DNA from: a virus
Lineage: Duplodnaviria > Heunggongvirae > Uroviricota > Caudoviricetes
Length of the DNA: 64,000 nt
Virus record (IMG/VR): IMGVR_UViG_3300035517_000267
Coordinates: 67,521 to 131,520 of that record
Direction: 5' to 3' (one strand)
Shown: positions 1 to 55,558 of the stretch, one piece after another
Position numbering within the stretch: position 1 is the stretch's first letter
Layout: each line of letters begins with the position of its first letter
Position numbers and translations under genes: made by a program
Notes under the pieces: generated by a model
What the model was told of the DNA's origin: nothing
The model's input: the letters and a program-made list of their open reading frames with translations, nothing else
The model's database searches: none

Positions 1-288
1 GTTAAATACTCCAACATTAATATTTTCATCTGATAAGCACGAGATTAGGGTTCCGTATAGCCAGCTATTAAATGATGTCCACTCAGCCATTTCATTATTT
101 CCGAGCTTAATATTAAATTCTTCCTCTGTAAAAAAATGATAATCTACTCCGTCTATCTCGCCCTCCCTAGGAGGACGAGTAGTACAGCTAATTATTTTAT
201 GATATGCGGGATTCGAGGCTAGTAGCGCTTTAAGGCATGAATCTTTACCGCTACCAGCTTCGCCCATGAGCGCAATAATTTTATACAT
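1..288 (-). CDS. guanylate kinase-like nucleotide kinase; partial, continues past the window start
   Basis: Translation from the ATG at 286-288 gives MYKIIALMGEAGSGKD (P-loop) followed by TTRPPREGEIDGVDYHF, the guanylate kinase signature. Confidence 0.6.
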   Translation of the reverse strand, partial: MYKIIALMGEAGSGKDSCLKALLASNPAYHKIISCTTRPPREGEIDGVDYHFFTEEEFNIKLGNNEMAEWTSFNSWLYGTLISCLSDENINVGVFN

Positions 289-289
289 T

Positions 290-577
290 TTATTCCTCCT
301 CCGTGAAAGCCCAGGTTTCTCCATAATCTGAGAAACGATAAATGTTAATATCTGGACCAGGAGATCCCCAAACGAAGAAAAAACAATTTTCATTTGCGCC
401 TAATTTAAGTTTTTCTTTGCTAATTTCGACTACTTTATCGAGCTTTTTAACTCCATTACCATAGTTGAGGTATCTTTGACCAAACATAAAGCCAAAGATA
501 GACCTCGTTGCATTAGAGTAATATTTCTCAAGTATTTGTTGTTTAGTCATCTTCACTTTCTCCTTTTGCCCTTTCAC
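290..577 (-). CDS. hypothetical protein
   Basis: ORF of 95 aa; its stop overlaps the start of the downstream kinase gene. Confidence 0.4.
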   Translation of the reverse strand: MKGQKEKVKMTKQQILEKYYSNATRSIFGFMFGQRYLNYGNGVKKLDKVVEISKEKLKLGANENCFFFVWGSPGPDINIYRFSDYGETWAFTEEE

Positions 578-2543
578 CTCTTAATACAAGGCTTCCATCT
601 TCTTTAATTTCATCTATCTTATAAAGTTGATGTTTTACAAGTGAATTTGCGTACTTCTTCGGCACAAATTGATCGCCACGTCTATATCCTTGAATAACTA
701 GCAAAGATCCACGGTTAAACCAACTGCGTTCTTCTATCGACTTGGTTCCATCTGCATTTATTTTACTAATTTGCTTGTCGAACAAACTAAAATGCTCTTT
801 GTTAAATCTAATAGTGACTACTCCATCTGTTGTTAATAAATAGATTGTACTTTTAGCTTTATCTTTTGCAAGACAAGTTCCGCAAATTCTGCTAAGCTTA
901 TAAAGAGGAATTCTTGCGTCACCTTTCTTCAATGTATAAGAAACAACAGGTGTCTCAGGAAGTTCTCCAAAATCGACTATTTGATATTGTTCCTTATTAA
1001 TGTGCGCAAGCTCATGCTCATGGTAGTAGAAACACAAGCTTTCCATCTCCCATGAAGAGAGGTTTCCACCCGCATATTTTTCCCAGGCTTCCATAAATAT
1101 CTCTGTGTTAAGAGCGTCAAGCAATTCATCTTTATTTTCTTTAATCCAATCTCTAAACACATCCATATAAGATTGATATGCTTTATCCCACACTTTAGCA
1201 TTTAAGATATTTGAATCAAAAGAATGATAATCTATTTCATTCAAGAAATCAATTGCTCTATCATCAAGTGTATAAGTGTCTGCGGATGTTTTACAAACCG
1301 ATTTTAAATACCTATTAAATTCATAAATTCTTTTTGTAAGAATATAAGGTTCTTCATCGGGGATTAAATTATATTTAATTAAAGTAGGAATATTTTGAAG
1401 TGTAAGTCTACTTTTTTTATCACAAGTCAACCACAAATATTCTACCATTGCACCTTGTCTATTAGATTCTATATTGTCAAAAGCTCCACCCTTTAAGAGA
1501 GCAACTATGGCTTGCTTGTTAGGATTTACTTTTTCAAGAAATTCTTTAATTGAATTATAAGGACGATTTGCGAATATTCTTTCAATCAATTCCTCTCCTA
1601 CATTTGTTATGCCCCTTAAACCAAAATAAATTTGATTGTTTTCTTCATCAGGAGAAAAAGTATAGCTTGATTGATTTATGTCGGGAGGAACTATTTTAAC
1701 ACCACTACTAATCATTTTACCAAGAGCTTGTGCAAGCTTTGCATAATCATTTGAACCACCGCTATCAGTAATCAAACAGGCACAATTCCAATAAATGATC
1801 GGAAAGTGGTAGCAAAGATTCATCTCCTGTAACGCAATGAGTGAGTAAGCTAGACAATGCGACCTATTAAAGCTATATCCGCGTTGTACCTTGAGTAATA
1901 CATCCCATACATAATGTGCTAGTTTTTCTGAGCAGCCCTTTTTGCGTACATTTTCAAAGAATTCTTTCTCACATTCCTCAAACAAGCTGCCTTGCTTCTT
2001 TGCTATTCCCTTGCGGCACTTATCAGCAAACGTCAAGGAGTTTCCACCAAGTCGAGGTTCTTGGACAAGCAACATCAAGCCTTCTTGGGATTCTACGATA
2101 CCATCTGTAGCTGCATCACTGCTTGCGAGCCATTTCATTTCATCAGATGTAAGACCATAAAGAGCCATTTCTTTATACCATTCACTAATATCACTTCTAT
2201 ATCTAGCCCATGTTTGAAGTGGCTGTTCTCCGCCCTTTTCCGGAGCCATTAGCCGGATAACCGAATTAAGAACAGTTAGGTCATTGATATTTTGAGGATG
2301 AATTGCAGAGATGCCTTGTATACCACTTTGTTGTTCCATTTGAAATAGCGAATGGATTTGGTGGGTATTAACCATTTCCCACATTTTTGGAGCAGTTCTT
2401 TCAATATTATAAATACCGATAACCTTTTCATATGTTTCTTTAAGAGTAGGTTCTGCGGAAACCTTACCATATTGTACTAACAGATCAAGGCAATTGTGAA
2501 TTTTATCCAAGCACTCTACAGACAACAGGTCTATCTTAATCAA
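543..2543 (-). CDS. dnaE: DNA polymerase III alpha (DnaE-type), 3' exon (C-terminal part)
   Basis: GYSFNRSHCLAYSLIALQ and PPDINQSSYTFSPDEENNQIYFGLRGITNVGEELIERI match the DnaE palm/fingers and HhH motifs. The ORF-track start is a TTG; the real exon begins near 2543 after the intron. Confidence 0.8.
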   Translation of the reverse strand: MIKIDLLSVECLDKIHNCLDLLVQYGKVSAEPTLKETYEKVIGIYNIERTAPKMWEMVNTHQIHSLFQMEQQSGIQGISAIHPQNINDLTVLNSVIRLMAPEKGGEQPLQTWARYRSDISEWYKEMALYGLTSDEMKWLASSDAATDGIVESQEGLMLLVQEPRLGGNSLTFADKCRKGIAKKQGSLFEECEKEFFENVRKKGCSEKLAHYVWDVLLKVQRGYSFNRSHCLAYSLIALQEMNLCYHFPIIYWNCACLITDSGGSNDYAKLAQALGKMISSGVKIVPPDINQSSYTFSPDEENNQIYFGLRGITNVGEELIERIFANRPYNSIKEFLEKVNPNKQAIVALLKGGAFDNIESNRQGAMVEYLWLTCDKKSRLTLQNIPTLIKYNLIPDEEPYILTKRIYEFNRYLKSVCKTSADTYTLDDRAIDFLNEIDYHSFDSNILNAKVWDKAYQSYMDVFRDWIKENKDELLDALNTEIFMEAWEKYAGGNLSSWEMESLCFYYHEHELAHINKEQYQIVDFGELPETPVVSYTLKKGDARIPLYKLSRICGTCLAKDKAKSTIYLLTTDGVVTIRFNKEHFSLFDKQISKINADGTKSIEERSWFNRGSLLVIQGYRRGDQFVPKKYANSLVKHQLYKIDEIKEDGSLVLRGERAKGESEDD

Positions 2544-3840
2544 CGTGTTATCCTATGTTTCCATAGGTACTGACTATCTCTTACTCCGTGAGAAAAGAAT
2601 TTTATATCCTTTCTCACGGAGAATACCATTTCGGTTTTCAGATGCTTCGTTTCCTAAAACATCGCTGCGTACTAATAGCAGCCCTACTCCCAGTCTCACC
2701 CGGGATAGTCGATACGCACAAAAGTTAAAGTGTTACATTCTTCCATGTTTTATAGTTAATTATATCTCTAATCGTGGTAGTAGACACGGAGGGGTATAGA
2801 GTATATAATTCTTTATTTGTCATTCCTTGTTCATGTTTTTTCCGAATATATCTTACATCATCTTCTGTAAGTTTAGCTTTAGGATTTCTAGAACCAGAAG
2901 CCTTTAAAGAGCTATGCTTCTTTTTGTTTTCTTCTGTAAAGACTTCTGGCATTACAAGCTTATAACTACGACCATTATATACATTCCAAAAACTCATTTC
3001 ATTGGTATATCTATTCTTATAGTCCTTATAGACATCTTTCCAATATTCTCCATTGGCGTAGCGCTTCCTTAAATCTATAACCTCTTCATATGTTAATACA
3101 TTACCTTTATTACAAAACTGATTAGAAAATTCAGTATTATAAGGATAACATTCTACCGAGGGAGTTAGATTTGTATAAGTTTGATGGTTGTAGCACTTCC
3201 TAAAAGCTTCATAACTTATCTTATCGCTAAATTCTTCATATAAAAGATAAATTGGAATGTTTCTATGGTCTTTAATATATTGCGCTTCTTCTTGCGTCAA
3301 ACAAGCATTTGCATTATCACTTCCATATTTAGCTTTATCACCCATAGTATACATCCCACCCTTAGCTACATTATAGCCATTAGGGACTAAACTATTTTTT
3401 TCTTGAATTAACTTTATTTCCAGCTCAGAAGCTTCTTCAACGCTAATTCCTTCATAAAGAACTTCAAAGGTAAAATTCTCTTTACCATACTTTTGAATTG
3501 CGTTCGTAATAGCTTGACGTCTCTTTGGATCTCCTATTTTAGAACACTCATTCTGCCAACGCCTCTTGTAATTGTTGGTTATTCCAATATAAATTTTCCC
3601 ATTTATATTATTGGTTATTTGATATACATACATACTTCATTACTCCTTTACAGTTCATATTAGATGTACCCCTACATTAAATATGAAAGTCGGAATAAAC
3701 ACTTTAAACTTTTTTGGTCCGGGATTACCATGAGATAAAAATCTTTTAGGCTTCCCCGGTGCTATATAGGTATTATTTACTTACGAGTTGCCTCAGCCTA
3801 TATAACATTGCTAGTAAGCAATTAGGTATTTAGTAGCCTG
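2544..3840 (-). mobile_element. group I intron interrupting dnaE, carrying a GIY-YIG homing endonuclease gene
   Basis: The DnaE reading frame is broken: exon 1 ends ...DCSQQLV and exon 2 resumes ...IKIDLLSV, aligning to DnaE LLKFDFLGL. The intervening about 1.3 kb holds a free-standing GIY-YIG ORF, and the 3' intron segment (2548-2730) contains GACUA-type core sequence shared with the dnaB intron. Confidence 0.7.
2725..3633 (-). CDS. GIY-YIG homing endonuclease (I-TevI-like, with a C-terminal NUMOD/IENR-type DNA-binding region)
   Basis: MYVYQITNNINGKIYIGITNNYKRRWQNE and NGYNVAKGG form the GIY-YIG motifs. The C-terminal region is related to the second intron endonuclease (MPEVFTE... KTWK). 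Confidence 0.85.
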   Translation of the reverse strand: MYVYQITNNINGKIYIGITNNYKRRWQNECSKIGDPKRRQAITNAIQKYGKENFTFEVLYEGISVEEASELEIKLIQEKNSLVPNGYNVAKGGMYTMGDKAKYGSDNANACLTQEEAQYIKDHRNIPIYLLYEEFSDKISYEAFRKCYNHQTYTNLTPSVECYPYNTEFSNQFCNKGNVLTYEEVIDLRKRYANGEYWKDVYKDYKNRYTNEMSFWNVYNGRSYKLVMPEVFTEENKKKHSSLKASGSRNPKAKLTEDDVRYIRKKHEQGMTNKELYTLYPSVSTTTIRDIINYKTWKNVTL

Positions 3841-5675
3841 ACTAATTGTTGACTACAATCTTCGCTATCATGCAGATCAAACTGTGTTACAATGTCTCCA
3901 TTAGGCACTTTCATTAAGGCGGTTGATTTTGTAAAAGGTTCATCTACAAAAATAACTCCACCAGCGTGCTCTCCGACGCGACATACCAAGCCTTCTATCT
4001 TCTGTGCGACTTCCCAAACTTCAGGATAGTCATTAGTCATGGCATTAACAAAAGTGGGAATTGGTTTAAATCCTTTTTCTTCGTCTCCATAGAAACATTC
4101 TTTAAGTGTGCGGGTTTGCCCTCTATCAGCAGGAATAAGAGACGCAAGATAAAGACCTACATCACTATCTATGCCAAGTCCTCTCGCAGCCGTTTGGATT
4201 GCTGACTTACTTTTTTCAGTTCCAAAAGTAACTACATTAGCCACTCTATCTTGTCCATAAAAATCACGAAGATGTTGGAGCACTTGAGCACGCCTTCCTC
4301 CCTCTATATCGCTATCTATGTCGAGCACAGAAACACGCTCGGGATTCAAAAATCTCCATGAATAGCATTTTGTCTCTTCCCATAATGGATTTATCTGAAT
4401 AATATCGAGCACATATAGCAAGGCAAACCCAACTCCTGAACCACGACCAGGTCCAACTAGAGTTCCTGCATTCCAGCATTCTTCAATCGTCTTTTGAAGA
4501 TTTAAAAAATAAGCACTCCAATGTGTTTTATTTACTTCTGAACTTTTCCAAGTAATTTCAAGATTGCTATTAAGTTCGTCATAAGTTTCTTGATTTTGCA
4601 GTCGAGAGTCTTTCTTTAATTTATCTACAACTGCCCTTGCGAGAATACTATCTCCATCAAAGCTCGATTGAGCGAACGTCCGCAAATAAGGAATTTTTTC
4701 ATACCATTCTTCTTCAATTGTTTTTGTCTCAGGAATTTTCCAGATAAGAGAAGGAATTTTTAGAGGCTTCAAAAGGCTATAATCTTCGCAAGCATCTTTA
4801 ATTTTTCTTATATTCTCATAAGCTGTATTTAGCTGTATCTCTGTAAAATAATCAAAATAAAGCTCTATTTCAGTTGTATCCATTATATAAGTTGTAGCAT
4901 AAAAAGAATCAACTTCTCTTTCACCATCCTGAGAATTAAGAAAAGCTTTGTGAATCGGAGCATCTTCTCTTCGTGTATAGTGAGTATCTGTAGTTATGAT
5001 ATAAGGAATGTTGAGCGTAGAAGAAAGATTAAGAAGGAACTTATTAACTTCTATTTGTTCATCATTTCTGGAAGGCTGCATTTCAAAATAGAAATTACCT
5101 TCTCCAAACAAATGTACCATACTAGTACACCAGTTAATAATTTGTTCATAAACTGTTTCATCATCTGTTATAAGATATTCCAAGATATGTTGCGGAAGCC
5201 AGCCTCCTAGACACGCACTACTTCCTATTACGTTTCCTCTATCTTGTCCTATAATCTCTATAAGATCTTGGTAATAAGTGGGAACCCTCGTCATTCCTCT
5301 TGAAGAATAACTGCGTTCCCATGCTCTTGTTGAAAGTTCTCTTATCTGCTCATGTCCTCTAGCATTTTTTGCTAAAAGAATAAAGTGCCAATACTTATCT
5401 TGTCCAGCAATATAAGTTTCAGGAGATAACCCATCTCGGCAAAGATAAATTTCATTGCCTCTAATAACCTTAAAGTCTGGATGATCTTTCTTTACTTTGC
5501 TATAATACTTTTCAATTTTGACGGCATTACTTATAGTTTCATGCTCGGTAAACGCAATAACTTCATGCCCAAGCTCAATAGCTCGATCTATAGAAGATTC
5601 TATGGTTGAAATGGCGTCGCGTAAGCGCAAATTACTATAATCCGTGTGCCCATGCAATGAACCGGGATAACCCAA
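3822..5675 (-). CDS. dnaE: DNA polymerase III alpha (DnaE-type), 5' exon (PHP domain and N-terminal palm)
   Basis: LHGHTDYS... FTEHE is the PHP domain; NFYFEMQ and GFALLYVLDIIQINPL are DnaE-like. The frame closes at 3822 inside the intron. Confidence 0.8.
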   Translation of the reverse strand: MGYPGSLHGHTDYSNLRLRDAISTIESSIDRAIELGHEVIAFTEHETISNAVKIEKYYSKVKKDHPDFKVIRGNEIYLCRDGLSPETYIAGQDKYWHFILLAKNARGHEQIRELSTRAWERSYSSRGMTRVPTYYQDLIEIIGQDRGNVIGSSACLGGWLPQHILEYLITDDETVYEQIINWCTSMVHLFGEGNFYFEMQPSRNDEQIEVNKFLLNLSSTLNIPYIITTDTHYTRREDAPIHKAFLNSQDGEREVDSFYATTYIMDTTEIELYFDYFTEIQLNTAYENIRKIKDACEDYSLLKPLKIPSLIWKIPETKTIEEEWYEKIPYLRTFAQSSFDGDSILARAVVDKLKKDSRLQNQETYDELNSNLEITWKSSEVNKTHWSAYFLNLQKTIEECWNAGTLVGPGRGSGVGFALLYVLDIIQINPLWEETKCYSWRFLNPERVSVLDIDSDIEGGRRAQVLQHLRDFYGQDRVANVVTFGTEKSKSAIQTAARGLGIDSDVGLYLASLIPADRGQTRTLKECFYGDEEKGFKPIPTFVNAMTNDYPEVWEVAQKIEGLVCRVGEHAGGVIFVDEPFTKSTALMKVPNGDIVTQFDLHDSEDCSQQLVRLLNT

Positions 5676-5677
5676 GA

Positions 5678-6049
5678 TTACTTACCTCCTTTATATATCT
5701 TTTTATACCACTCTCTATCATCAATAGATAAGATAAGTTCCTTACCACAAAAAGGACAATTCATAAAAGAGATAGTATGAAGGTCACGCTTTTTATTCTT
5801 TATATCTTCTTCTTTAAATCTGATGACCGACTTACAATTGGCGCATTTTGTTTCATACCCAGCTGCTATTGATTTTGTTGCCATAAAGTCTTCACAAGTC
5901 AAGGCGGCTGTATCTGGATGGCGCTCTTTTTGGTTTACATCAAGAGAGCCATAAATCTTACAATTACAAGCATCATAGCCACAAAAATAAGAAGTAAAGA
6001 AATTGATACAATTAGAACATTTTTTCATTATTTTCCCTCTTTTGTACAT
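5678..6049 (-). CDS. Cys-rich zinc-ribbon protein, paralog family
   Basis: Several CxxC pairs and a C-terminal DDREWYKKIY motif shared with the two downstream small ORFs. Confidence 0.5.
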   Translation of the reverse strand: MYKRGKIMKKCSNCINFFTSYFCGYDACNCKIYGSLDVNQKERHPDTAALTCEDFMATKSIAAGYETKCANCKSVIRFKEEDIKNKKRDLHTISFMNCPFCGKELILSIDDREWYKKIYKGGK

Positions 6050-6236
6050 CTATAATGGCTTCGCTTCCACAACAAGGACAATGAATATAGAATGTTGTAG
6101 AAAAAAACGTGCGAGCGATTACATCTTGAGGCTCATATTCAAGTAATGAGTTACTCCAATAACATCTTATTTGCTTCTTCTTTACACAATTTTCTATAAC
6201 TTTAACCATTAATTTTCTCATACCACTCTCTATCAT
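6012..6236 (-). CDS. Cys-rich zinc-ribbon protein, paralog
   Basis: Contains HCPCCGSEAIIDV, a CxxC zinc-ribbon motif of the same kind as in the two neighbouring Cys-rich ORFs. Confidence 0.4.
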   Translation of the reverse strand: MIESGMRKLMVKVIENCVKKKQIRCYWSNSLLEYEPQDVIARTFFSTTFYIHCPCCGSEAIIDVQKRENNEKMF

Positions 6237-6426
6237 CTTTAGCCAAGACTACTACTTCTCCGCAACAAGGACAATTATCTTTAAGAAGCTTGTAAGCATG
6301 CCACCCATCAATTTCATCTATGCGTCGAGTTGACAAGATATCTTCGCCTCCAAAGCCAAGAATTGAACCACAACTTTCGCAAGTTGTTTTGTATTTAGGT
6401 ACGTTGTTTTTAATTATTGTAACCAT
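6202..6426 (-). CDS. Cys-rich zinc-ribbon protein, paralog
   Basis: CESCGS ... CPCCGEVVVLAKDDREWYEKING shares the DDREWY motif; AAAGGAGATAG ribosome-binding site upstream. Confidence 0.5.
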   Translation of the reverse strand: MVTIIKNNVPKYKTTCESCGSILGFGGEDILSTRRIDEIDGWHAYKLLKDNCPCCGEVVVLAKDDREWYEKING

Positions 6427-6439
6427 AAACTATCTCCTT

Positions 6440-6476
6440 TCTAATAATATTATACCATATTTTTCTCTATATAGCA
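6440..6476 (-). promoter_or_regulatory. conserved phage promoter (minus strand): extended -10 TATGGTATAAT
   Basis: One of at least 15 copies of the motif. Plus strand reads ...tatatattata(c/t)cata(t)ttttat...aaaaagtaaaaag; minus strand reads TTTACT-17 nt-TGnTATAAT-ATATATAGAAA. Confidence 0.6.
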
Positions 6477-6479
6477 AGC

Positions 6480-7676
6480 TTACTTGAGAACCAGGGTAAG
6501 CTTTTTAGTGGCACGAGTTACAGCTGTATAGAGCCATCGACGATGTTCTTCTTTGTCGTAAGGAAAAGATTCTTCGATAACTAAGACCTTATCCCATTGG
6601 GATCCCTGTGCTCGATGAGTAGTGATAGCATAACCATAATTAAACTCTATAGGAAGGGGCGGATTTTTGCTGCCCTTTCCCGCGTAGGTAATCATATATT
6701 CTTCTTGCGGAGTAAAAGTTTTTGTTCCAGTACAAAGAGCTTTATAATCAATAGGAACATTATAAATCATATCACCAGAGCTTGTTATTAAATCAGTTAC
6801 AAGAACTTCTGCTTTAAATCTTTTATGCAATTTTTTATTTACATATATTCTATTTTCCAGCCGCATAGTATCAATAGTGCAAATAGAACCATTAACCAGA
6901 GGGTCTTGTTTTTCTTGAGAGACTAAATCCCAATTATTTTTTAAACAAATGATTTTCTCTCCAATTACTGGATTATTTGCGGGATAGCCCTTTTCCGCAC
7001 GAACAAAATTATTTATTGCGATACGAGTTTTATTAGTAGCAGTAAGTATTTCGTCTGCCCAGTTATACATTCCAGTTACCAAATCTTGAGAACGTACAAT
7101 TTGAGTGTCATTGCCACGGAAAGGGGTAATTACTTTTCCTTCTCTAATATTCATGCTTGTAACAATAATATCGCTTTCTTTTGCTTGCCGCATTACTTCA
7201 TCAAGAAAAATGTGCGGATTGTCGAGTATGTGGTTGTCATCTTTCTTGTTTATTGGTGGTAATTGAGCAGGATCTCCGAGCGCGATAACATGAACACCAT
7301 GGCTTAAAAGTAAATTCCACATCTGTTTAGGTAGCATTGATACTTCATCCACGATTACTAGTGCAGGACAGTCGTCTAAATATTCTTTAGGATAAAAGCT
7401 ATAAGTTCCATCTTTATTTTGTTTAGCTTTATAAAGTATTTTATGAGCCGTTTTAGCGTTGGGATTCCCTTTTTCTCTTAATACCTCGGCTGCTTTGCCT
7501 GTATAAGCAAGGTAGATTACATCTTCTGGATCAAGCCCTAAAGCTGCAATAATAAAGGTTACTAGAGTCGACTTTCCACTTCCTGCGTAGCCACTAATCA
7601 CGGTATAGAGTTCTCCACGCTTATATCGTTCGACTGCAATTTTAAGCCCTTCGGCTTGCTTGTCTGTAAGAACCAT
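6480..7676 (-). CDS. SF1 DNA helicase, Dda/RecD-like
   Basis: GYAGSGKST (Walker A), VIVDEVSML, GDPAQLPPI and YAITTHRAQGSQWDKVLV motifs. Confidence 0.8.
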   Translation of the reverse strand: MVLTDKQAEGLKIAVERYKRGELYTVISGYAGSGKSTLVTFIIAALGLDPEDVIYLAYTGKAAEVLREKGNPNAKTAHKILYKAKQNKDGTYSFYPKEYLDDCPALVIVDEVSMLPKQMWNLLLSHGVHVIALGDPAQLPPINKKDDNHILDNPHIFLDEVMRQAKESDIIVTSMNIREGKVITPFRGNDTQIVRSQDLVTGMYNWADEILTATNKTRIAINNFVRAEKGYPANNPVIGEKIICLKNNWDLVSQEKQDPLVNGSICTIDTMRLENRIYVNKKLHKRFKAEVLVTDLITSSGDMIYNVPIDYKALCTGTKTFTPQEEYMITYAGKGSKNPPLPIEFNYGYAITTHRAQGSQWDKVLVIEESFPYDKEEHRRWLYTAVTRATKKLTLVLK

Positions 7677-7693
7677 AGTTTCCTCACTTCTTA

Positions 7694-7984
7694 TTAAAGA
7701 GTTTTACAATCATATTTACAAGTGGCACAATCGCCCTTGCATACAAAATAATTCAACAAGTCATCGGCAATAAAGGCTGCGGATTCTACACGAGAACAAT
7801 TGGTCTCCGCCATTATATTCTGTATATCCTTTTCAAAGAGTACTTCTTCATAATCTAGGGGTTCTACAGTATTATCATTATTTAAAAGAATCTTATAGCA
7901 ATAATTAATAAAGCGTTCACCTTTTTGGTTAATGTATTGATGTTTGAAACTGTTTATTATGCGCTTAACATACCGCTTTAACAT
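7694..7984 (-). CDS. hypothetical protein
   Basis: ORF only. Confidence 0.35.
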   Translation of the reverse strand: MLKRYVKRIINSFKHQYINQKGERFINYCYKILLNNDNTVEPLDYEEVLFEKDIQNIMAETNCSRVESAAFIADDLLNYFVCKGDCATCKYDCKTL

Positions 7985-8159
7985 TTTCTATCTCCTTGTC
8001 TATCATATCTCGCATTATCTTTAACCCATTTTCATCTAAAGTAGGAAATTTAACTGGGAGTGTTAATGTATCCCCTATTTTTTCAACTATATGCTGATGA
8101 GTTTCTTGAAGCTCGTCTACGCTAATAAGATTTTTCATATCATAAAGTAATATATTCAT
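7965..8159 (-). CDS. hypothetical protein
   Basis: ORF with an AGGAGGAATAAAAAG ribosome-binding site and the conserved promoter upstream. Confidence 0.4.
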   Translation of the reverse strand: MNILLYDMKNLISVDELQETHQHIVEKIGDTLTLPVKFPTLDENGLKIMRDMIDKEIENVKAVC

Positions 8160-8164
8160 CTTTT

Positions 8165-8200
8165 TATTCCTCCTATTATTATTATACCATATTAAGAAAT
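8165..8200 (-). promoter_or_regulatory. conserved promoter copy
   Basis: Minus strand TATGGTATAAT followed by AGGAGGAATAAAAAGATG. Confidence 0.55.
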
Positions 8201-8330
8201 TTAAATCAATTAATTACTTTAACCTAAAAATTTCTAAAAGTGATTTTAGTTTTGAGGAACGATAAAGGCAGTCATAATCGCTCCGACTGCATATAAAAAA
8301 AATAAGGGGAGCATTTAAGCTCCCCTAGAA

Positions 8331-9038
8331 TCAAGTGGTAAAGTAGTTATAAGCAATTATTGCATTTGTCTGCGCGTAAGCATGAGTATAAGAGGCGCCT
8401 CTCTCATAACATTTAGAAAAGGCTAACGCTGCGGCAGACGCATCTTGTAAGTTTAAGAAGGCATCATAATTGAACCCTCTGTAATAATTTGACCCATAAG
8501 TATCCATTTCATATTCAATTGTGTCTCTAAGAAAATTACACTGAGTCTCAAGATCCGTTCCCCAGACAGAAGAATATCCTTTAGACCATTGGCAGATTCC
8601 ATAATATCCATTTCCGTATAGCCAATACTGAATATTAAGAGTTCCGCCGCCAACTTCTCGCATCATATTGCCTAGTAGTCCTGCACAAACATAATCATTA
8701 TAGCCAAGGTCTTTAAAGTAATTCCAAATGTAAGCTGCATTAGGATACTCGGTTTCCTTTTGGCTTGCCGCAGCTTCTTCTTGATATGATTTCTTGGCAT
8801 AATATGCTTTCCACCATTCTTCTTGTGCGGTTTTGATTATGTCGCAATCTTCTTCATAGCCCAATCCTCTAGCTCCTTCTGCCATTTGATGGGCTGCATC
8901 CATTCTAGCTTCTTGCTCAGCTATAAGATCGGTTGAGGGCGCTGCCGCAAATCCCCAGCTTGCGATCATAGATGCTACTAAAGCAATACAAATAATTTGT
9001 TTTTTCATGTTGTCCTCCTTAAAATAGAGGTTACGCAA
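8331..9038 (-). CDS. secreted protein with signal peptide; possibly a lysozyme-like domain
   Basis: N-terminal MKKQIICIALVASMIASWGFAAAP signal peptide; a GICQWS-containing domain. No firm family assignment. Confidence 0.4.
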   Translation of the reverse strand: MRNLYFKEDNMKKQIICIALVASMIASWGFAAAPSTDLIAEQEARMDAAHQMAEGARGLGYEEDCDIIKTAQEEWWKAYYAKKSYQEEAAASQKETEYPNAAYIWNYFKDLGYNDYVCAGLLGNMMREVGGGTLNIQYWLYGNGYYGICQWSKGYSSVWGTDLETQCNFLRDTIEYEMDTYGSNYYRGFNYDAFLNLQDASAAALAFSKCYERGASYTHAYAQTNAIIAYNYFTT

Positions 9039-10586
9039 TCAAAAATAATACTTTTGTCTACCTAAAATTTCAAAATCGGTAATTAAAATCTGCGGAGTGA
9101 CCTTAGTAAAATATCTATTTACCGTAGGTCTACCAATAGCAGTTATATTTACGCAACCTAATTCGTTAGAAGTTAATTCTTCTAACTCCTTCTCATTTGA
9201 TTTAAACTTAATCAGTGTTATTCCATTTGATAGTGTTATTTTTAAAGTTGGATTTTTATCTCTAGACATTAATGTTACCATATCTTTTGTCACTGATAAG
9301 TTTTCTACTACAACAAGCGGTTCATCGACATTTGTTGCCCAAAGATTTTTTGAATCTCCTAATTCTAATATTGCTTGTTGATTAACAGATGAACCCGAAT
9401 AAATAAAATCAACCTTATAACAAGGAGAAAATTCTATATCTTTAAGTTGCTCTTCCGACCATTCTACAAATTGATTAAAATTGTGGTCGGAGATGGCTAA
9501 TCCAAAAGCATTTCCATGTCCGCTCGCATATTCAATTAAGCCAGAACTTTCGCAAAAAGCTCGGAAATCTATAAGCTTTGACTTCTCATAACCTCTTGCG
9601 GAACCCGCCCAAATTAATTCTCCATTTGTTGTAGTTGGAGAAAGAATTGCAACAGGTCTTTTGTACTTAGACATTAATTCATTAGCAATTAGTCCTCGCA
9701 CTCCAGCATCTACAGATACATCATGCAATTGAATCAAAAGCAACTTCCGAGAAAGAAGATTGTCTTGCTCTATTATAGACTCTATTTCTGCGGCGCTGGC
9801 ATCTCGAATTTTTGTCTGGCGATTTTTTACGTTAGTGCAAGTCCGCAAAGCTTGTTCAACTCTAGTTTCTTCTTCGCCTTTATGACCGCGTTTCGTTGAA
9901 GGAATTAATTCATTTGCTTTCCATTCAAGCATACTTTCAAAAACCAATCTCTTTTCTTCTTGTGTTCCTACTCTAGTAATTGCATTAATTAAAGGAACTA
10001 TATAAAAAGAGACTCCTAGGGGAGTTAAATCCCCAGTGCCAAGTTGATACTCATTTTTTTGAGCCATACCTTTTATGAATGGATTGCGGAGACTCGTGCG
10101 ACGTAGCCCTTCTTGGATAAGATAATGTGTTTCGATATATCTTGCATCCATCATGTCGCCTTGAAGTCCAATCCCTACTATGTCAAGATAATCATCCGCA
10201 TAAGCAGTCCCGCAAATCCTGTCAAAATATTGACATAACTTATAAACTATTCCTACGCCAGAAAGAGATTTTGTTGGATAGTCACAAAGCTGATTATTGA
10301 CAACACAAGCATATTCGCTTTCTCGCTCCGCAATGTGATGGTCTAATACCACTACATCAATACCTTTTTCGCTTAACTCTTGGTGAATGGCATAATCATT
10401 GCTCGAAGAATCGGGCGCTATAACCAATGTTGTTCCCTCTGGAATTAAACTTATATTAATTCCATGTACTTTACCATCATGAAAATCATAACTAAATTTA
10501 TTCATCGCTGAGGGAAACTGCCTACCAAGGTAGTTGAGCAAAAGTGAGCTTGACGAATATCCATCACAATCCGAGTCCACTTGCAC
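9039..10586 (-). CDS. DHH/DHHA1 phosphoesterase, RecJ-like ssDNA exonuclease
   Basis: VQVDSDCDG (motif I), DVVVLDHH (motif III) and the GHGNAFG DHHA1 motif. The frame stays open upstream to about 10776 (…LKNIEQAAQIIIKHIIDDNAKIF) with an AGGGGGG ribosome-binding site but no canonical start codon, so the N-terminus is probably longer than the ORF track shows. Confidence 0.75.
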   Translation of the reverse strand: MQVDSDCDGYSSSSLLLNYLGRQFPSAMNKFSYDFHDGKVHGINISLIPEGTTLVIAPDSSSNDYAIHQELSEKGIDVVVLDHHIAERESEYACVVNNQLCDYPTKSLSGVGIVYKLCQYFDRICGTAYADDYLDIVGIGLQGDMMDARYIETHYLIQEGLRRTSLRNPFIKGMAQKNEYQLGTGDLTPLGVSFYIVPLINAITRVGTQEEKRLVFESMLEWKANELIPSTKRGHKGEEETRVEQALRTCTNVKNRQTKIRDASAAEIESIIEQDNLLSRKLLLIQLHDVSVDAGVRGLIANELMSKYKRPVAILSPTTTNGELIWAGSARGYEKSKLIDFRAFCESSGLIEYASGHGNAFGLAISDHNFNQFVEWSEEQLKDIEFSPCYKVDFIYSGSSVNQQAILELGDSKNLWATNVDEPLVVVENLSVTKDMVTLMSRDKNPTLKITLSNGITLIKFKSNEKELEELTSNELGCVNITAIGRPTVNRYFTKVTPQILITDFEILGRQKYYF

Positions 10587-10918
10587 AAATATCTTTGCAT
10601 TGTCGTCGATAATATGCTTAATTATAATTTGAGCCGCTTGTTCTATATTTTTAAGTTTCAGGGGTGATAAATTATCCTCTTTTGTTACGTTTAGATAATG
10701 AGGAATATCTTCATAAGCAATTCCTCGGTTTGTAAGAACTTGCTCTAATGCAGAGTAATTTTCATTAATTGAATTTATTAATTCGTATTCTATTATAATT
10801 ACCCCCCTCGTTTAAAACTTATAAAAGCTTGCAGAGGGGACTTCCATAAGGTGAGACATGATAATTTCATTTAATCTCCAGTCGGCGCTCTCATAGATCG
10901 CTCCATATACTATACCTC

Positions 10919-12031
10919 TCATTCCTTTGGTACAATCCTTTCTTTTAATAACTTTTCAAATATTTGCGGACCTGCGTCTATAGGGCTTGCTTTATGAGGG
11001 AGAATCATCTCCTTATCAAATATTGCAGATATTTTAATACTTTGACCATATTTATCATTAATGTGAATAAGTTTACTTTTTAGTCTCTGAAACTCTTTGT
11101 CTCCTATGCACTCAAAATCACGGTCAAATGCAACCACAACTTCTTGTACTCCAATAGATTTTAATAGTTCTATATGATAAGTTGAAATACTACTACCGCA
11201 ACAAGCTACTGAAATATCGTTATCTTGTCCATAATAACTAATATACTGCAAGCACGCTTTTTCTGATTCAAAAATAATTGCCACTCCCGCACGCCTAATA
11301 TTTTCTTTACTATTATTCAAATTATATAAATTAAGACTTAAAGGATGATTATACATTTGTCCTTCTACTATTAAAGGGCGATATTTTCCAAATTTATCTG
11401 CTTCTTCTTGTGCTAAAGTTCTTCCTCTTATTCCAATAAGATTACCTTCCATATCAAAATGAGGAATAGTTATTTGCTCTTTGCCTGGGTAATAACCGAT
11501 TAGATTCTTCTTAATTACCTCATTTGATATACCTTCATCTTCCCAATTAAGTATCCTTGGATAAAGAAATCTAGTAAGAATAACCGGGTCATAACTAGGC
11601 AATTTAGCAAATGAAAAAGAATCTTTGGACTTTTTCTTATATCTACTAAATATTTCCCAACCTATTAAATGCTCTTCTTCTTTTACTTGCTCAACGCCTT
11701 CAAATCCAAAGTATTGTGCAATAAAATTCATGGCGTCATAAAGTTGCCATTCCATATTTTTTTGATTATGTACTACTTTAATACATAATTCAAATATATC
11801 AAATGAAGGTGAACTTGTACATCCAGTAAAACAATAAAAGAGTTGTGAGCCTTCATAATAATAAAGTTTGCGGGAGCCAACCCCTGGAAGATTATGACAT
11901 ATTGTCTGGGAGATTATACCTTGTGAAAAGTATTCAGGCTCCCCGCCCCACATTTCTAATAGGTCGTATATGTTTTCTATTGATAGTTGAGCTTTTAGTT
12001 CATCTTTATTATAAAATTTATTCAATCCCAA
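10919..12031 (-). CDS. dnaG: DNA primase, DnaG-like (zinc finger plus TOPRIM)
   Basis: CHN...CFTGC zinc-binding region and a TOPRIM motif AIIFESEKA...VVVAFDRD. Confidence 0.75.
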   Translation of the reverse strand: MGLNKFYNKDELKAQLSIENIYDLLEMWGGEPEYFSQGIISQTICHNLPGVGSRKLYYYEGSQLFYCFTGCTSSPSFDIFELCIKVVHNQKNMEWQLYDAMNFIAQYFGFEGVEQVKEEEHLIGWEIFSRYKKKSKDSFSFAKLPSYDPVILTRFLYPRILNWEDEGISNEVIKKNLIGYYPGKEQITIPHFDMEGNLIGIRGRTLAQEEADKFGKYRPLIVEGQMYNHPLSLNLYNLNNSKENIRRAGVAIIFESEKACLQYISYYGQDNDISVACCGSSISTYHIELLKSIGVQEVVVAFDRDFECIGDKEFQRLKSKLIHINDKYGQSIKISAIFDKEMILPHKASPIDAGPQIFEKLLKERIVPKE

Positions 12032-12720
12032 GGAGCATCACCATCATCTACAATTACGCGTGTATCCTCTATAGGTACCATTTCTAGTCGCCAGTTAGTA
12101 CAAAATTGCGGTTCTATTCTACAAGTTCCCAAATTTGCGGAACAAAAAAGATAAACTCCCTTATATGCCCCACGACGATTCTTATATATAGATAGTTTGA
12201 TTTTAGGCACTTTAAGATTGGGATTTGCGGCAAGAATTGGAGCGAGTTTTTCAAGGTCTTGAGGAGTAACTTCCAAGAGTATCATCCCCGTGTCAACTCT
12301 GTCTGCGATGCTTTTCGCTCCTCTCAAGAGATTTTGGTCTGGAGTTTCGCTATCTTTATAGTCGGTATTAAGCTGTGTACCCGTCAAAATAAAAACTCCA
12401 TATTGATTAGCTATATCTTTTAACCTAGCAGACAACATAAAAAGTATATTATCTTCTCGAAGCTTGACTCCGCCAGAACGCTTGGATATTTCTTCGAGTA
12501 TCTTGAGTGATGTGTGTATATAATCGAACATATTCCTCCTATGTTTCCATAGGTACTGACTATCTCTTACTTGACAAAATGCCAAGGATACCTTTTCGAG
12601 CCACGTACCAATAGTAGCCCTACTCCGCCGATCCGCGGATAGTCGATACAGGTTAAATTTGGACTTGTTTCCAAGTTTTTCCTCGACAAATATCTCCAAT
12701 TGTAGATTTGCAAATACCAT
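12022..12720 (-). CDS. dnaB: replicative DNA helicase DnaB-like, 3' exon
   Basis: MFDYIHTSLKILEEISKRSGG... ILTGTQLN matches the DnaB IDYLQL...ALSQLNR region. The true exon begins near 12530; the upstream in-frame part of the ORF is intron sequence. Confidence 0.7.
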   Translation of the reverse strand: MVFANLQLEIFVEEKLGNKSKFNLYRLSADRRSRATIGTWLEKVSLAFCQVRDSQYLWKHRRNMFDYIHTSLKILEEISKRSGGVKLREDNILFMLSARLKDIANQYGVFILTGTQLNTDYKDSETPDQNLLRGAKSIADRVDTGMILLEVTPQDLEKLAPILAANPNLKVPKIKLSIYKNRRGAYKGVYLFCSANLGTCRIEPQFCTNWRLEMVPIEDTRVIVDDGDAPWD

Positions 12721-13526
12721 ATTTGTCGATTAATTGTTGGTATGTGAATCCATTTTTTCTATCTATTTTAATTGCACGAACAATTTCTTCATTTAATTTG
12801 GTATGTCTATTTTTCTCAGTAAATACTTCTGGCATAATTGTTTTATATCTAGAGCCAGTCCAAATATTTAGAAAAGAATTATAGTGCATTTTTCCTTCAT
12901 ATAATTCTTTGTAAATCTTACTTGGACTTTCATGCCTAGCATAAGCTTTTCTAAGAAAAATAACCTCATCTTCCGATAATGAAGCGTGAGCTTTCATAAG
13001 CTTTTCTTTTTGTTCCTCTTTCATTGGTTTAGAAGCATTTAATCCACCAGACTCAATATTATATCCATTTGGAATCTAAGTTTTTAAATTAGCAATATAA
13101 TATATTTCTAGTCCATTTAATTCTTCTATTGTTTCGGCTTCTGCTAAAATTTCATATTTAAAATTTTCATAGCCATATTTTCGGAAAGCTCTATGAAGCG
13201 GAGAATTATACTCAGGGTCTTTTTCATTAAAAGCCGTACTTTTATGAGCATTATATCTTTGTCTTGGGTTAATTGTTTGACCCACATATTTTTTCCCATT
13301 AATTAAATTAGTATAACAATAAATGATTCCCATAAAGTAATCATCCTTTCTTTAAAATTATTTCCATTAATATATGAAAATAATCAAAGGTGTTTTGATT
13401 ACTTTTGTCCAAAATTTTTTCCCACGGGATTACCATGCCATTTGGTTTAGGTTTCCCCGTTAGCTAGAATCAAAACTATTCTAACCCCAGTGGTAACTGG
13501 AAAGGTATTACACAGCCCTCGGTTTT
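12541..13526 (-). mobile_element. group I intron in dnaB, carrying a GIY-YIG homing endonuclease
   Basis: DnaB N-terminal and C-terminal halves are separated by about 1 kb. The 3' intron segment at 12538-12660 shares near-identical core blocks with the dnaE intron: cctatgtttccataggtactgactatctcttact, agccctactcc and ggatagtcgatac. Confidence 0.7.
12653..13333 (-). CDS. GIY-YIG homing endonuclease, intron-encoded, with one in-frame TAG
   Basis: The 13076-13333 ORF (GIIYCYTNLINGKKYVGQT) and the 12653-13024 ORF (IPNGYNIESGG... KTWKQV) are in one frame joined by a TAG at 13076-13078. Together they give the complete GIY-YIG plus NUMOD-like architecture seen in the first endonuclease. Confidence 0.65.
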
Positions 13527-14567
13527 TCACTGAGCAATGTAGCGAACATCATGCTCTCTGATGTTCTTCTTTATAATATTTTCTACGTCTTGGAGAGAAA
13601 AGTCGGGCAACGTCTCAACCCAAAGGGGGCTACGAGACAAGATTTCCGCAGCTTTTTTAATTCTTTCTTCTTCTCCTTCAAGATATTGACCATTTAAGAT
13701 ATGTTCTTCATTTACATTTGATAAAAATGCAAGCATCATTGTTTGAATCTCAGTTAAATCTTGTTCAACAGCAATAAAAAGAGTAGGCTGTGCGCTTCCA
13801 TTTCTTATCCAACCAAACTGGTCATGATAAATCTCATTACACGCAAAATTGCAAGCATCGGCAATCATTGAACGTGTTTTGCCAACTCCAGTTGCCGCTG
13901 ACCTAAGATACATTTTGCCAAGTCTTGCTCCGCGAGTTACTGTGTTAATGAGGGGTCCATACATCGGAATACCAATCTCAGGATTCTTCTTTAAATCTTC
14001 AATAAGTCCCAAAATACCATCTCCCGCCTGGTAGCCATCACCTAAGTCATCATTAACATATTTTGTTTTTATTTCATCTATTCTATTATCAATATCTTGG
14101 GCAATAGATGTAATAGAAGTTTTATCAAGCCAATCTTCTTGCTCTTGTTTTTTGTTTGTATTGATAATATTTTCTGGGTCATAAAGATAACTTACATCAA
14201 GCCCATAGTTTGCATAAGCTCTTAGCAAGCTAAATTTTTTCATGCGCATATAATAATAATTAAAGGTTTCTTTCTTAGAAACTTGAGAAGCTTCTGCAAG
14301 ATATTCAACGCCTTTATTCTTATTAAAAATCGCTTCATATTTAGGTCTATTGGCGAGATAATCTATAATAGACTCTATGTTTACCTTACTCCCAGTAAGA
14401 TGTATATTGTAAATTGCTCCAAAAGTTATTTTATGAAAATTTTCAGTAAAATCATCTTCATGTATAACATATTTATCTGTATCATCAAGTATAGAAGAAT
14501 CGTTAAAAACACATCCAATAACCTGCGTTATGGCGGCAAGGTCTATATAACTATTAGGATTAACCAC
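13527..14567 (-). CDS. dnaB: replicative DNA helicase DnaB-like, 5' exon
   Basis: DnaB N-terminal domain followed by Walker A GVGKT. Confidence 0.7.
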   Translation of the reverse strand: MVNPNSYIDLAAITQVIGCVFNDSSILDDTDKYVIHEDDFTENFHKITFGAIYNIHLTGSKVNIESIIDYLANRPKYEAIFNKNKGVEYLAEASQVSKKETFNYYYMRMKKFSLLRAYANYGLDVSYLYDPENIINTNKKQEQEDWLDKTSITSIAQDIDNRIDEIKTKYVNDDLGDGYQAGDGILGLIEDLKKNPEIGIPMYGPLINTVTRGARLGKMYLRSAATGVGKTRSMIADACNFACNEIYHDQFGWIRNGSAQPTLFIAVEQDLTEIQTMMLAFLSNVNEEHILNGQYLEGEEERIKKAAEILSRSPLWVETLPDFSLQDVENIIKKNIREHDVRYIAQ

Positions 14568-39258: not shown

Positions 39259-39417
39259 ATCTTACCTCCTAGGGTATGGCGGCGGGGGACGGTACTGACC
39301 CGTCTTCCAAGCTTTTAGAGAGCCTTGCATTACCTTTATGCTACCCCGCATTTTCTAATTCTATTATACAGGAAAAATTTCATAAAGTCAAAAAAAAGAG
39401 AGGGTTTATTCCCTCTC

Positions 39418-47687: not shown

Positions 47688-47774
47688 TGGTGCGAGCGGC
47701 GGGACTCGAACCCGCACGTCCTTGTGGACACGAGATTTTAAGTCTCGGGTGTCTACCACTTCCACCACGCTCGC
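47688..47774 (-). tRNA. tRNA-Leu (UAA), type II
   Basis: GCGAGCGTGGTGGAAGTGGTAGACACCCGAGACTTAAAATCTCGTGTCCACAAGGACGTGCGGGTTCGAGTCCCGCCGCTCGCACCA; anticodon loop CTTAAAA; long variable arm; CCA encoded. Confidence 0.8.
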
Positions 47775-48387
47775 TTATATTTTATGAAAGACCCCTTCGG
47801 GTTGCTATCTGTTCAATCGTAGCTATATTCAGTCAATAGGGAGACAAGAGTGTGCCTAGAGGAGCTACCTCTAAACAGCTTGCCCCAGCTTAGAGCCAAG
47901 TCCCATGGGAGATTGGTTACTCCCAACTTTCACCCACCATTCACATCTTGTATCTGTTAAAACCATTAACATAAAAATTTGATGTAATCTTGGCAGACCA
48001 TTTGGGCTACTCGTACTGTGACCTTATCTTATACACCGATTTCTCGGCTTCAACTGCCAAGTTCCTTAGTGACATTCCAAGGTTTGCAAAAACTGTCACA
48101 TTTTTACCTAACTTGGATTCTTCTCCACAGGAGCGTCTATTGCGGAACCGATAAGACCATACTTTTAACTGCGATTGTGATAGTGCCTTTCTTCCTACAG
48201 AGCTAAAGTTCTTTAGCCTCAACCCAACCTCACGAATTGAGCCGATACAAGATTGCTAGGGTATCCTCTAGTACCTTGCTACTTACGGAAGAAGCCTCAG
48301 CACAATGGCGTTTGTCTACACTGAGTTCTTTCATAATATTTTGTCATTCTTATTTATGTATAGATGGAGAATAACAAAACCACCTTT

Positions 48388-48461
48388 GGCAGTCCCTACT
48401 CGTGACGATCGAGTACCCTCTGATTCAAAGTCAGATGTGCAGTCCGCTACACCAAGGGACT
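48388..48461 (-). tRNA. tRNA-Gln (UUG)
   Basis: AGTCCCTTGGTGTAGCGGACTGCACATCTGACTTTGAATCAGAGGGTACTCGATCGTCACGAGTAGGGACTGCCA. Perfect 7-bp acceptor, anticodon loop CTTTGAA, CCA encoded; the T loop ATCGTCA is non-canonical. Confidence 0.6.
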
Positions 48462-51053: not shown

Positions 51054-51055
51054 TA

Positions 51056-52093: not shown

Positions 52094-52165
52094 TTTAACC
52101 CAGCCTTTCAGGATTTAGTTTCTGTTTGCACCTTTATTTCATCTTCAAAGGAAATATCAACTATT

Positions 52166-52759: not shown

Positions 52760-52761
52760 AA

Positions 52762-53208: not shown

Positions 53209-53226
53209 GTTTAAATCCTCCTTGGA

Positions 53227-55480: not shown

Positions 55481-55558
55481 TTATAGTTTCCTTTTAATAC
55501 AATTGATTTTTCGTTTAGAGGAAGTAATTGATAATATAATAATAAATATTTTTGTTTA

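Follow-up and report, generated by a model that had tools for sequence, protein, structure and literature searches.

The record IMGVR_UViG_3300035517_000267 belongs to an uncultivated gut phage of the Caudoviricetes, and the stretch analyzed here, termed the window, covers its positions 67,521 to 131,520 (64,000 nucleotides, nt). In the part of the window described below all genes lie on the minus strand, and two of them, encoding a DnaE-type polymerase and the DnaB helicase, are interrupted by insertions of 1308 and 1004 nt, respectively, as judged from the open reading frame (ORF) map and from alignment with homologues. With a probability of roughly 0.88 in our estimate, both insertions are mobile td-like (IA2-type) group I introns that carry I-TevI-like GIY-YIG genes; their splicing is inferred. 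They are a known kind of mobile element, not a new one, and represent a fresh case in an uncultivated gut phage. The main features are listed below; here and in the text a slash marks a junction or an insertion site.

3852-5675, minus strand: dnaE exon 1, 608 codons, PHP and palm/NTPase, ends ...GAT TGT AGT
2544-3851, minus strand: dnaE group I intron of 1308 nt, from C 3851 to the terminal G 2544
2725-3633, minus strand: GIY-YIG gene of the dnaE intron, located in the P6 loop, 302 amino acids (aa), PF01541 with an E value of 9e-13
543-2543, minus strand: dnaE exon 2, 666 codons and stop, finger and HhH, starts TTG ATT AAG
13533-14567, minus strand: dnaB exon 1, 345 codons, ends ...TAC ATT GCT
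12529-13532, minus strand: dnaB group I intron of 1004 nt, from C 13532 to the terminal G 12529
12653-13333, minus strand: GIY-YIG gene of the dnaB intron (226 codons), located in the P6 loop, with a single in-frame TAG at 13076-13078
12022-12528, minus strand: dnaB exon 2, 168 codons and stop, starts TTC GAT TAT

In the ORF map, DnaE appears as frames of 617 aa (3822-5675) and 666 aa (543-2543), and DnaB as one frame of 346 aa (13527-14567) and a downstream frame ending at 12022. The N-terminal part of DnaE contains the PHP and DNA_pol3_alpha (NTPase/palm) domains, with Pfam E values of 7e-23 and 1e-48, respectively; the Pol III alpha NTPase/palm match breaks off at profile position 251 of 260. 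The C-terminal part of DnaE contains the Pol III finger and HHH_6 (HhH) domains, and the N-terminal part of DnaB contains the DnaB N-terminal domain and the first half of DnaB_C. A preliminary description of the window had claimed that GIY-YIG-carrying insertions split both genes, which the ORF map and Pfam bear out. An assembly artefact is excluded, because the independent contig L002 is 99.2% identical across window positions 1-11676 (11.7 kilobases, kb), the dnaE intron included.

Exact removal of the insertions yields a DnaE of 1274 aa and a DnaB of 513 aa. The viral contig L001 carries an uninterrupted DnaE of 1278 aa, with 86% protein identity to the spliced window DnaE. The junction DCS/LIKIDLL is collinear with L001 and leaves no gap in protein or DNA; the spliced protein reads ...HDSEDCS/LIKIDLLSVECL, compared to ...HDDEAVS LIKIDLLSVECL in L001, and joining 3852 to 2543 gives ...VTQFDLHDSEDCS/LIKIDLLSVECLDKIH, compared to ...VTQFDLHDDEAVS LIKIDLLSVECLDKIH. 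For DnaB, the database search identified more than 100 uninterrupted homologues of 511-514 aa, in all of which exactly two residues separate ...(K/R)Y from FDY. The spliced protein (...DVRYIA/FDYIHTSLKIL) matches the homologues (...DVKYVxFDYIQTSLKIL) in this spacing; the closest one, P0001, is 84% identical, has the predicted spliced length of 513 aa and reads KYVAFDY. A single pair of sites, ...TAC ATT GCT/CAG TGA... and ...AATATG/TTC GAT TAT..., fits the homologue spacing together with a U before the 5' site and a G before the 3' site. The junctions RYI/FDY and RYMNM-FDY, derived from the first U·G in P1, violated the two-residue spacing and were dropped.

The predicted joined exons are GATTGTAGT/TTGATTAAG for dnaE and TACATTGCT/TTCGATTAT for dnaB, and the predicted junction-spanning sequences are GATAGCGAAGATTGTAGT/TTGATTAAGATAGACCTG and GTTCGCTACATTGCT/TTCGATTATATACAC, respectively. 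Junction mapping against uninterrupted genes, as the preliminary description had proposed, is thus exact and gap-free for DnaE (L001) and for DnaB (the homologues above and L052). Its own boundaries held in part: the dnaE 3' limit of 2544 is correct, the 5' limit of 3840 lies 11 nt short of the true 3851, because the ORF 3822-5675 runs 9 codons into the intron, and dnaB exon 2 starts at 12528 and not at 12540.

Group I introns require a U before the 5' splice site. At exon position -1 both intron-bearing alleles have U and the intron-less alleles (L001 for dnaE, L052 for dnaB) have G; the G/U change is synonymous in both genes. The dnaE site is located five codons before the residue aligned with D618 of Taq Pol III alpha, the Asp of LIKID, which we take to be the third catalytic aspartate (E. 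coli D555). The dnaB junction is immediately 5' of the conserved FDY motif, presumably a Walker-B-like element. When aligned with Taq Pol III alpha (3e0d, 2hpi), DnaE has its junction between the counterparts of residues 613 and 614. Insertion sites like those in dnaE and dnaB are typical of mobile introns and inteins.

Three DnaB homologues of 873-883 aa (P0069, P0076 and P0111) contain a ∼360-aa LAGLIDADG intein at the P-loop GVGK/T, after residue 230. The dnaB gene is thus invaded at two conserved positions, by the intein in these homologues and by the intron in the window.

Both introns were first read by eye, and the reading was then tested on relatives. The elements of the ribozyme core are the following (P, paired region; J, joining region).

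3833-3856, minus strand: dnaE intron P1, exon GUAGU and intron C (3856-3851) paired with the guide GGCUAC (3838-3833), U·G at the splice site
3825-3830, minus strand: dnaE intron P3 5' strand AAUACC, partner GGUAUU at 2622-2627 (permutation test)
3760-3821, minus strand: dnaE intron hairpins P3.1 (3808-3821) and P3.2 (3760-3807), between P3 and J3/4 (RNAfold, RNAalifold)
3719-3759, minus strand: dnaE intron P4-P5-P5a (CCGGGG...UCCCGG; RNAfold, RNAalifold)
2544-2715, minus strand: dnaE intron 3' ribozyme half, with the P7 5' strand 2706-2715, P7.1 2688-2705, P7.2 2664-2682, an extra hairpin 2641-2663, the P3 3' strand 2622-2627, P8 2584-2621, J8/7 and the P7 3' strand 2567-2583, P9 (GAAA loop) 2553-2566, and the tail with terminal G 2544-2552
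13509-13541, minus strand: dnaB intron P1, exon UACAUUGCU and intron C (13541-13532) paired with GGGCUGUGUA (13518-13509), U·G at the splice site and one U-U mismatch
13424-13508, minus strand: dnaB intron 5' core, with the P3 5' strand 13502-13508, P3.1 13487-13500, P3.2 13462-13486 and P4-P5 13424-13460
12529-12652, minus strand: dnaB intron 3' ribozyme half, with the P7 5' strand 12640-12649, P7.1 12624-12639, P7.2 12600-12618, the P3 3' strand 12588-12594, P8 12570-12586, J8/7 and the P7 3' strand 12553-12569, P9 12539-12552 and the terminal G 12529

The two cores share one layout. P2 is absent in both, and the P3 5' strand stands directly after P1. The P4-P5 block reads ACGGGGAAACCUAAA...GGUAAUCCCGU in the dnaB intron and CCGGGGAAGCCUAAA...GGUAAUCCCGG in the dnaE intron; the closing pair of P4-P5-P5a is C-G in the dnaE intron, and A-U in the dnaB intron and most relatives. 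P6 closes around the endonuclease ORF in each case. The P7 5' strand is GUAUCGACUA and the P7 3' strand lies inside AAGAGAUAGUCAGUAC in both introns; they resemble the classical R and S elements. P7 is followed by the P7.1 and P7.2 hairpins, a CGAAA linker, the P3 3' strand and P8. The P9 hairpin is CUAUG-GAAA-CAUAG, and an 8-9 nt tail with the final G comes after it; this G, at 2544 and 12529, falls in the conserved ...UAYG end column of the family alignment. Compared to the family, the 3' half of the dnaE intron contains two large insertions, the extra hairpin 2641-2663 and the long P8, which are well-formed and peripheral in location.

A canonical P3 just upstream of P4 was also considered and rejected, as 13654 of 20000 permutations reach the observed complementarity score. 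The hairpins between P3 and P4 were at one point regarded as unprecedented; this idea was dropped, since P3.1 is already listed among the optional group I pairings (PMC3873408). The fold against group IA models suggested in the preliminary description is supported in one respect: P7.1 and P7.2, which lie between P7 and the P3 3' strand and belong to the features of subgroup IA2, are present in both introns and covary. The other IA2 feature, a P2 and a P3 5' strand directly before J3/4, is found in neither intron, and the Rfam group I model gives no match on the window, as detailed below.

Relatives were retrieved from IMG/VR with the 16-mer J8/7-P7 pattern AAGAGATAGTCAGTAC, which gave 45 stretches. 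About 30 of them continue with a 5-base-pair hairpin of varied sequence, a GNRA loop and a ...UA(C/U)G end, and most such loci carry GACTA 71-82 nt upstream. The family comprises about 25 phage loci besides those of the window. Among 19 distinct 3' halves, the P7.1, P7.2 and P9 helices are 99.1% paired, and all 15 of their 15 pairs have changed on both sides; the covariation score is 0.61, compared to 0.18 for shuffled alignments (0 of 500 reach it) and 0.05-0.09 with the partners slid. An initial P3 test, which took the longest helix anywhere in 90 nt, gave no discrimination, and position-anchored windows were used instead. With these, the P3 complementarity of 13 members is cognate-specific (0 of 20000 permutations reach the cognate score). 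The P3 5' strands, which include AUACC, CACAC, AAACU, GAAUCC, AUUACU, UACUAU and AACACC, each fit their own 3' strand. Despite differing sequence, RNAfold places two hairpins between P3 and J3/4 in 14 of 14 members. For five ORF-less relatives and the two ORF-deleted window introns, RNAalifold predicts P3.1, P4, P5, P7, P7.1, P7.2 and P9; the consensus contains 41 pairs, 22 of which, including pairs of P3.1, show compensatory changes. The dnaE guide also covaries with the exon: in the orthologous intron of L045, exon GAGU/C pairs with GGCUC.

Fifteen relatives, without the window introns, served to build R1, a covariance model of the 3' half. R1 finds the dnaB intron at 12529-12652 with 119.3 bits (E value 8e-24). 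The dnaE intron is matched in two pieces, 34.1 bits at 2544-2629 and 18.7 bits at 2664-2705, owing to its extra hairpin and long P8. In both introns the alignment finishes at the predicted terminal G, and the best R1 score elsewhere in the window is 12.7 bits.

Based on these elements, the intron RNA, once transcribed, would fold into a ribozyme. In P1, the last exon bases would pair with the internal guide and set the U·G at the 5' splice site; P3-P8 and P4-P6 would form the scaffold and P7 the guanosine pocket, with P7.1/P7.2, the two P3-P4 hairpins and the GAAA-loop P9 as peripheral elements. A free guanosine would attack after the U, the released exon 1 would attack after the terminal G of the intron, and exon ligation would restore the full-length DnaE and DnaB. 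For homing, the GIY-YIG enzyme is expected to cut the intron-less dnaE or dnaB of co-infecting relatives, and repair would then copy the intron in; candidate substrates are the alleles of L001 (dnaE) and L052 (dnaB). Catalysis and homing are both inferred here; the boundaries, the RNA architecture with its covariation and the family of the endonucleases are observed.

The endonuclease of the dnaE intron matches the I-TevI catalytic domain (PDB 1mk0) over residues 5-93, with an E value of 1e-4. Its gene has a ribosome-binding site, AAGGAG, at 3643-3648, and its stop codon overlaps the P6 3' strand (2720-2726). In the dnaB intron, the part at 13076-13333 matches PF01541 (E value 5e-8), and the same frame runs on to 12653; the TAG is codon 86, no further lesion is present, and the last codons overlap the P6 3' strand. 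With the TAG read as Q, this protein matches PHROG 7168 with an E value of 4e-37. Both endonucleases match PHROG 7168 and 314, annotated as 'homing endonuclease'; they are 30-34% identical in the catalytic and C-terminal parts, on both sides of the TAG (E values 1e-21 and 5e-18), and in both genes a ribosome-binding site is found 9-10 nt 5' of the ATG. The GIY-YIG assignment of the preliminary description is confirmed by PF01541, 1mk0 and PHROG.

Two further observations in the window bear on the TAG, a tRNA and a group of long frames.

39277-39350, minus strand: tRNA with anticodon CUA (amber suppressor), found by ARAGORN
48918-55581, minus strand: frames that are long if TAG is read as sense, of 785 codons (16 TAGs), 714 codons (5 TAGs) and 353 codons (3 TAGs)

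The PHROG search with the two large TAG-containing frames returned no family match. In a block of its genes, the phage probably uses TAG to encode an amino acid. Owing to the tRNA(CUA) and the TAG-rich long frames, the TAG in the dnaB-intron endonuclease may be a sense codon, presumably read through by the suppressor tRNA, and the gene may be intact. In the endonuclease ORFs of L020, L030, L031, L036 and L015, in-frame TAGs stand where the dnaE-intron endonuclease has ordinary residues, which suggests frequent recoding of endonuclease genes within this phage group. Recoded stops have been described in an intron endonuclease within an early gene of a TGA-recoded phage, and a delay of endonuclease production was proposed (10.1101/2021.08.26.457843).

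The two introns are clearly related. A 33-nt block (J8/7-P7-P9) is identical at all 33 positions at 2552-2584 and 12538-12570, which 0 of 100 window shuffles match; GTATCGACTATCC is common to 2703-2715 and 12637-12649, and GGAGTAGGGCT is likewise found in both introns. All three near-identical 3' blocks of the preliminary description are therefore common to the two introns, whose alignable cores are ∼73-76% identical. The same description took them as a sign that one lineage had colonized two genes. The relatedness holds. However, the 3' halves of the window introns are 73% identical to each other and 75-77% identical to those of L025 and L031, and for its 5' half the dnaE intron has orthologues in the dnaE introns of L045 and L020; the pair looks less like the product of one recent jump between the genes than like two members of a family that is widespread and spreading. 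A trace of gene conversion between introns of one genome may be preserved in the identical 33-nt block. Members of the family were found at the following sites.

dnaE, same site, no ORF: L045
dnaE, same site, homologous ORF: L020
dnaE, same site, more distant gene: L036
dnaE, GY/SF..H site: L033
gyrA: L031
gyrB: L048
nrdD: L006, L013
dnaB, another site: L043 (by eye only)

Self-splicing introns in dnaE had been called unusual. In such phages they are not, as L045, L020 and L036 have an intron at the same position, and L033 and Enterocloster phages have one elsewhere in dnaE. In GenBank Enterocloster phages, dnaE is in three pieces, which are called hypothetical proteins, and the first gap harbours an HNH endonuclease gene. 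In the isolated Enterocloster phage CB473P3 (L051, OP172757.1), the three-piece dnaE spans 2977-8439 and the HNH gene of the first gap is I-HmuI-like; in the second gap (∼6402-6947, GY/FS..H site), R/S-like elements are readable and R1 gives a partial match of 28 bits, and Rfam finds nothing in this gap. A 14-kb megablast against GenBank phages gave no match, and the nearest isolated phages have less than 40% DnaE identity. A 19-mer has no match in bacterial genomes; a looser family pattern finds seven contigs of gut Firmicutes metagenome-assembled genomes. Canonical group I introns (Rfam, 70.8-92 bits) also lie on family-bearing contigs, at 443-673, 3973-4209 and 5396-5659 of L010, 6369-6595 of L006 and 627-899 of L041; family-bearing phages carry several introns each. 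The full-text literature search found no paper on group I introns in phage dnaE or dnaB, but public sequences clearly contain such introns.

The group I identity had also been claimed in the preliminary description, and it is upheld by spliced products collinear with uninterrupted homologues, by a complete core with U·G and terminal G, by the family covariation, by detection of both introns with a model built from relatives only, and by RF00028 matches on two ORF-less relatives. Several observations weigh against the overall explanation. Rfam RF00028 (Intron_gpI) has no match on the window at the gathering threshold or on either insertion at E ≤ 10, where Rfam returns only noise from snoRNA and miRNA models, and it finds nothing on the ORF-less relatives L045, L046 and L009. 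We attribute the miss on the window to the ORFs of 0.7-0.9 kb, which split the core, and to the unusual 5' domain; the family as a whole is scored poorly because this domain is non-standard, without P2 and with P3.1/P3.2. On two other ORF-less relatives RF00028 does match, with 60 bits (L025) and 50.1 bits (L041) at a threshold of 50 bits. P7 never varies in the family set, and this is uninformative since its 3' strand is the retrieval pattern. The 3' end of the dnaB intron (12529-12545, minus strand) reads ...GGAGGAAUAUG/UUC, with a Shine-Dalgarno-like run 3 nt upstream of an AUG in frame with exon 2, and unspliced RNA could in principle allow separate translation of the DnaB C-terminal part. 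The dnaB-intron endonuclease with its in-frame TAG could be a pseudogene. A group II intron was rejected, because Rfam gives no group II match (window at the gathering threshold, insertions at E ≤ 10) and the sole long ORF of each insertion is of the GIY-YIG type, with no reverse-transcriptase or maturase domain.

In another account, free-standing endonuclease genes would have broken dnaE and dnaB, as in the split nrdA of phage Aeh1, and the halves would be translated separately and assemble with no RNA splicing. Gene fracture through endonuclease invasion is documented (PMC2677866); in addition, the exon 1 frames stop soon after the junction (9 codons in dnaE, 2 codons in dnaB), dnaE exon 2 starts with TTG and has AGGA 7 nt upstream, and GGAGGAAT and an in-frame ATG lie ahead of dnaB exon 2. 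However, this ATG is the conserved ...UAYG terminus of the family and is not dnaB-specific, and the breaks lie within conserved catalytic motifs. Separate halves also leave unexplained the ∼300-400 nt of conserved, covarying ribozyme around each endonuclease gene, the U at exon -1 specific to intron-bearing alleles, and the ORF-less insertion at the same dnaE site in L045; we regard this account as very unlikely. It is improbable, too, that one or both insertions are real group I introns that have decayed and no longer splice, the interrupted gene being a pseudogene. Such decay would agree with the TAG in the dnaB-intron endonuclease gene and with the extra hairpin 2641-2663 and long P8 of the dnaE intron, which R1 matches in pieces of 34 and 19 bits; but these dnaE insertions are well-formed peripheral hairpins, this phage probably reads the TAG as sense, all core helices are intact in both introns, and the exons of dnaE and dnaB are all intact, with conservation over 1274 and 513 codons. 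A second dnaE or dnaB was not present in the window ORF list, in a search that was not exhaustive. Split inteins, in which each half would carry an intein fragment and the halves would be joined by trans protein splicing, have practically no probability left. Replication genes split in this way, with an endonuclease gene separating the two parts, are known (PMC2677866), and DnaB homologues of this phage group carry inteins, as described above; yet these lie 115 residues upstream of the dnaB junction (residue 345), Pfam detects an intein domain in no half, and the few codons past the exon 1 junctions, with none before exon 2, are too short for fragments of ∼100 aa and ∼35 aa. An intein fold is impossible in so few extra residues, and the sequence already refutes split inteins.

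Taken together, the td-like group I introns may be part of a larger picture, which we find doubtful and offer only as a possibility. In it, a distinct td-like ribozyme branch, without P2, with P3.1/P3.2 and largely invisible to Rfam, would extend across dnaE (at least two sites), dnaB, gyrA, gyrB and nrdD of gut-Firmicutes phages; the dnaB-intron endonuclease would be made only once the suppressor tRNA is active, tying homing to late infection, and the 33-nt block would reflect gene conversion.

The existing knowledge of group I introns is unchanged by these findings, and their value lies mainly in annotation; the P2-less layout and the TAG are of modest interest. Gene callers give both essential replication genes as fragments, the GenBank relatives are called 'hypothetical protein', and Rfam flags none of the introns. 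The exact junctions allow the correct DnaE and DnaB proteins to be written. The window adds a further case of mobile introns in the most conserved, active-site-proximal codons of replication genes. A family with ORF-less and ORF-bearing versions at one site offers a small natural system for endonuclease gain and loss, and a TAG in one endonuclease gene of a TAG-recoded phage is a possible system for timed endonuclease expression.

Apart from the introns, the window contains a full-length ROOL RNA at 47772-48349, minus strand (Rfam RF03087, 322 bits). It is flanked by tRNAs, with tRNA-Leu (47688-47774) directly downstream and tRNA-Gln (48387-48461) upstream.

That phage DNA-metabolism genes contain group I introns with GIY-YIG genes is textbook knowledge. 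The closest known system is the T4 td intron with I-TevI, of subgroup IA2, together with the nrdB, nrdD, Twort, SPO1 and Bastillevirinae introns. Like these, the window introns have a group I core with P7.1/P7.2; they further share with td the R/S-like ...CGACUAUCC... and ...AAGAGAUAGUC..., the CGAAA linker before the P3 3' strand, the GIY-YIG ORF in the P6 loop with its end overlapping the core, and the conserved, active-site-proximal insertion in a DNA-metabolism gene. The td 3' half appears to have the same layout, ...CGACUAUCC-hairpin-GGAGUAGGG-hairpin-CGAAA-P3'-P8-GAGAUAUAGUC-P9. Different from td, the window introns lack P2, have the P3 5' strand right after P1 and contain covarying P3.1/P3.2 before J3/4; their host genes encode a DnaE-type polymerase and the DnaB helicase, whereas those of the known introns are td and nrd genes.

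A second likeness is with the crAss-like and recoded gut phages. The crAss-like Delta/Zeta gut phages combine a high load of introns and inteins with stop-codon recoding (Yutin et al. 2021, PMC7886860). The features in common are as follows: core replication genes carry group I introns that encode endonucleases, inteins occur in homologues, and a suppressor tRNA accompanies a block of genes with in-frame stops. Different from the crAss-like phages, whose polymerase is PolA or PolB, the polymerase here is DnaE-type; compared to the intron example of the recoded-phage preprint (Borges et al., 10.1101/2021.08.26.457843), the recoded codon is TAG instead of TGA, and only one of the two window intron endonuclease genes carries it. 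Fractured genes (Dassa et al. 2009, PMC2677866) resemble the present loci in that replication genes are in two pieces with a homing endonuclease gene between them; in the window, intein fragments are absent and a complete ribozyme encloses the endonuclease gene.

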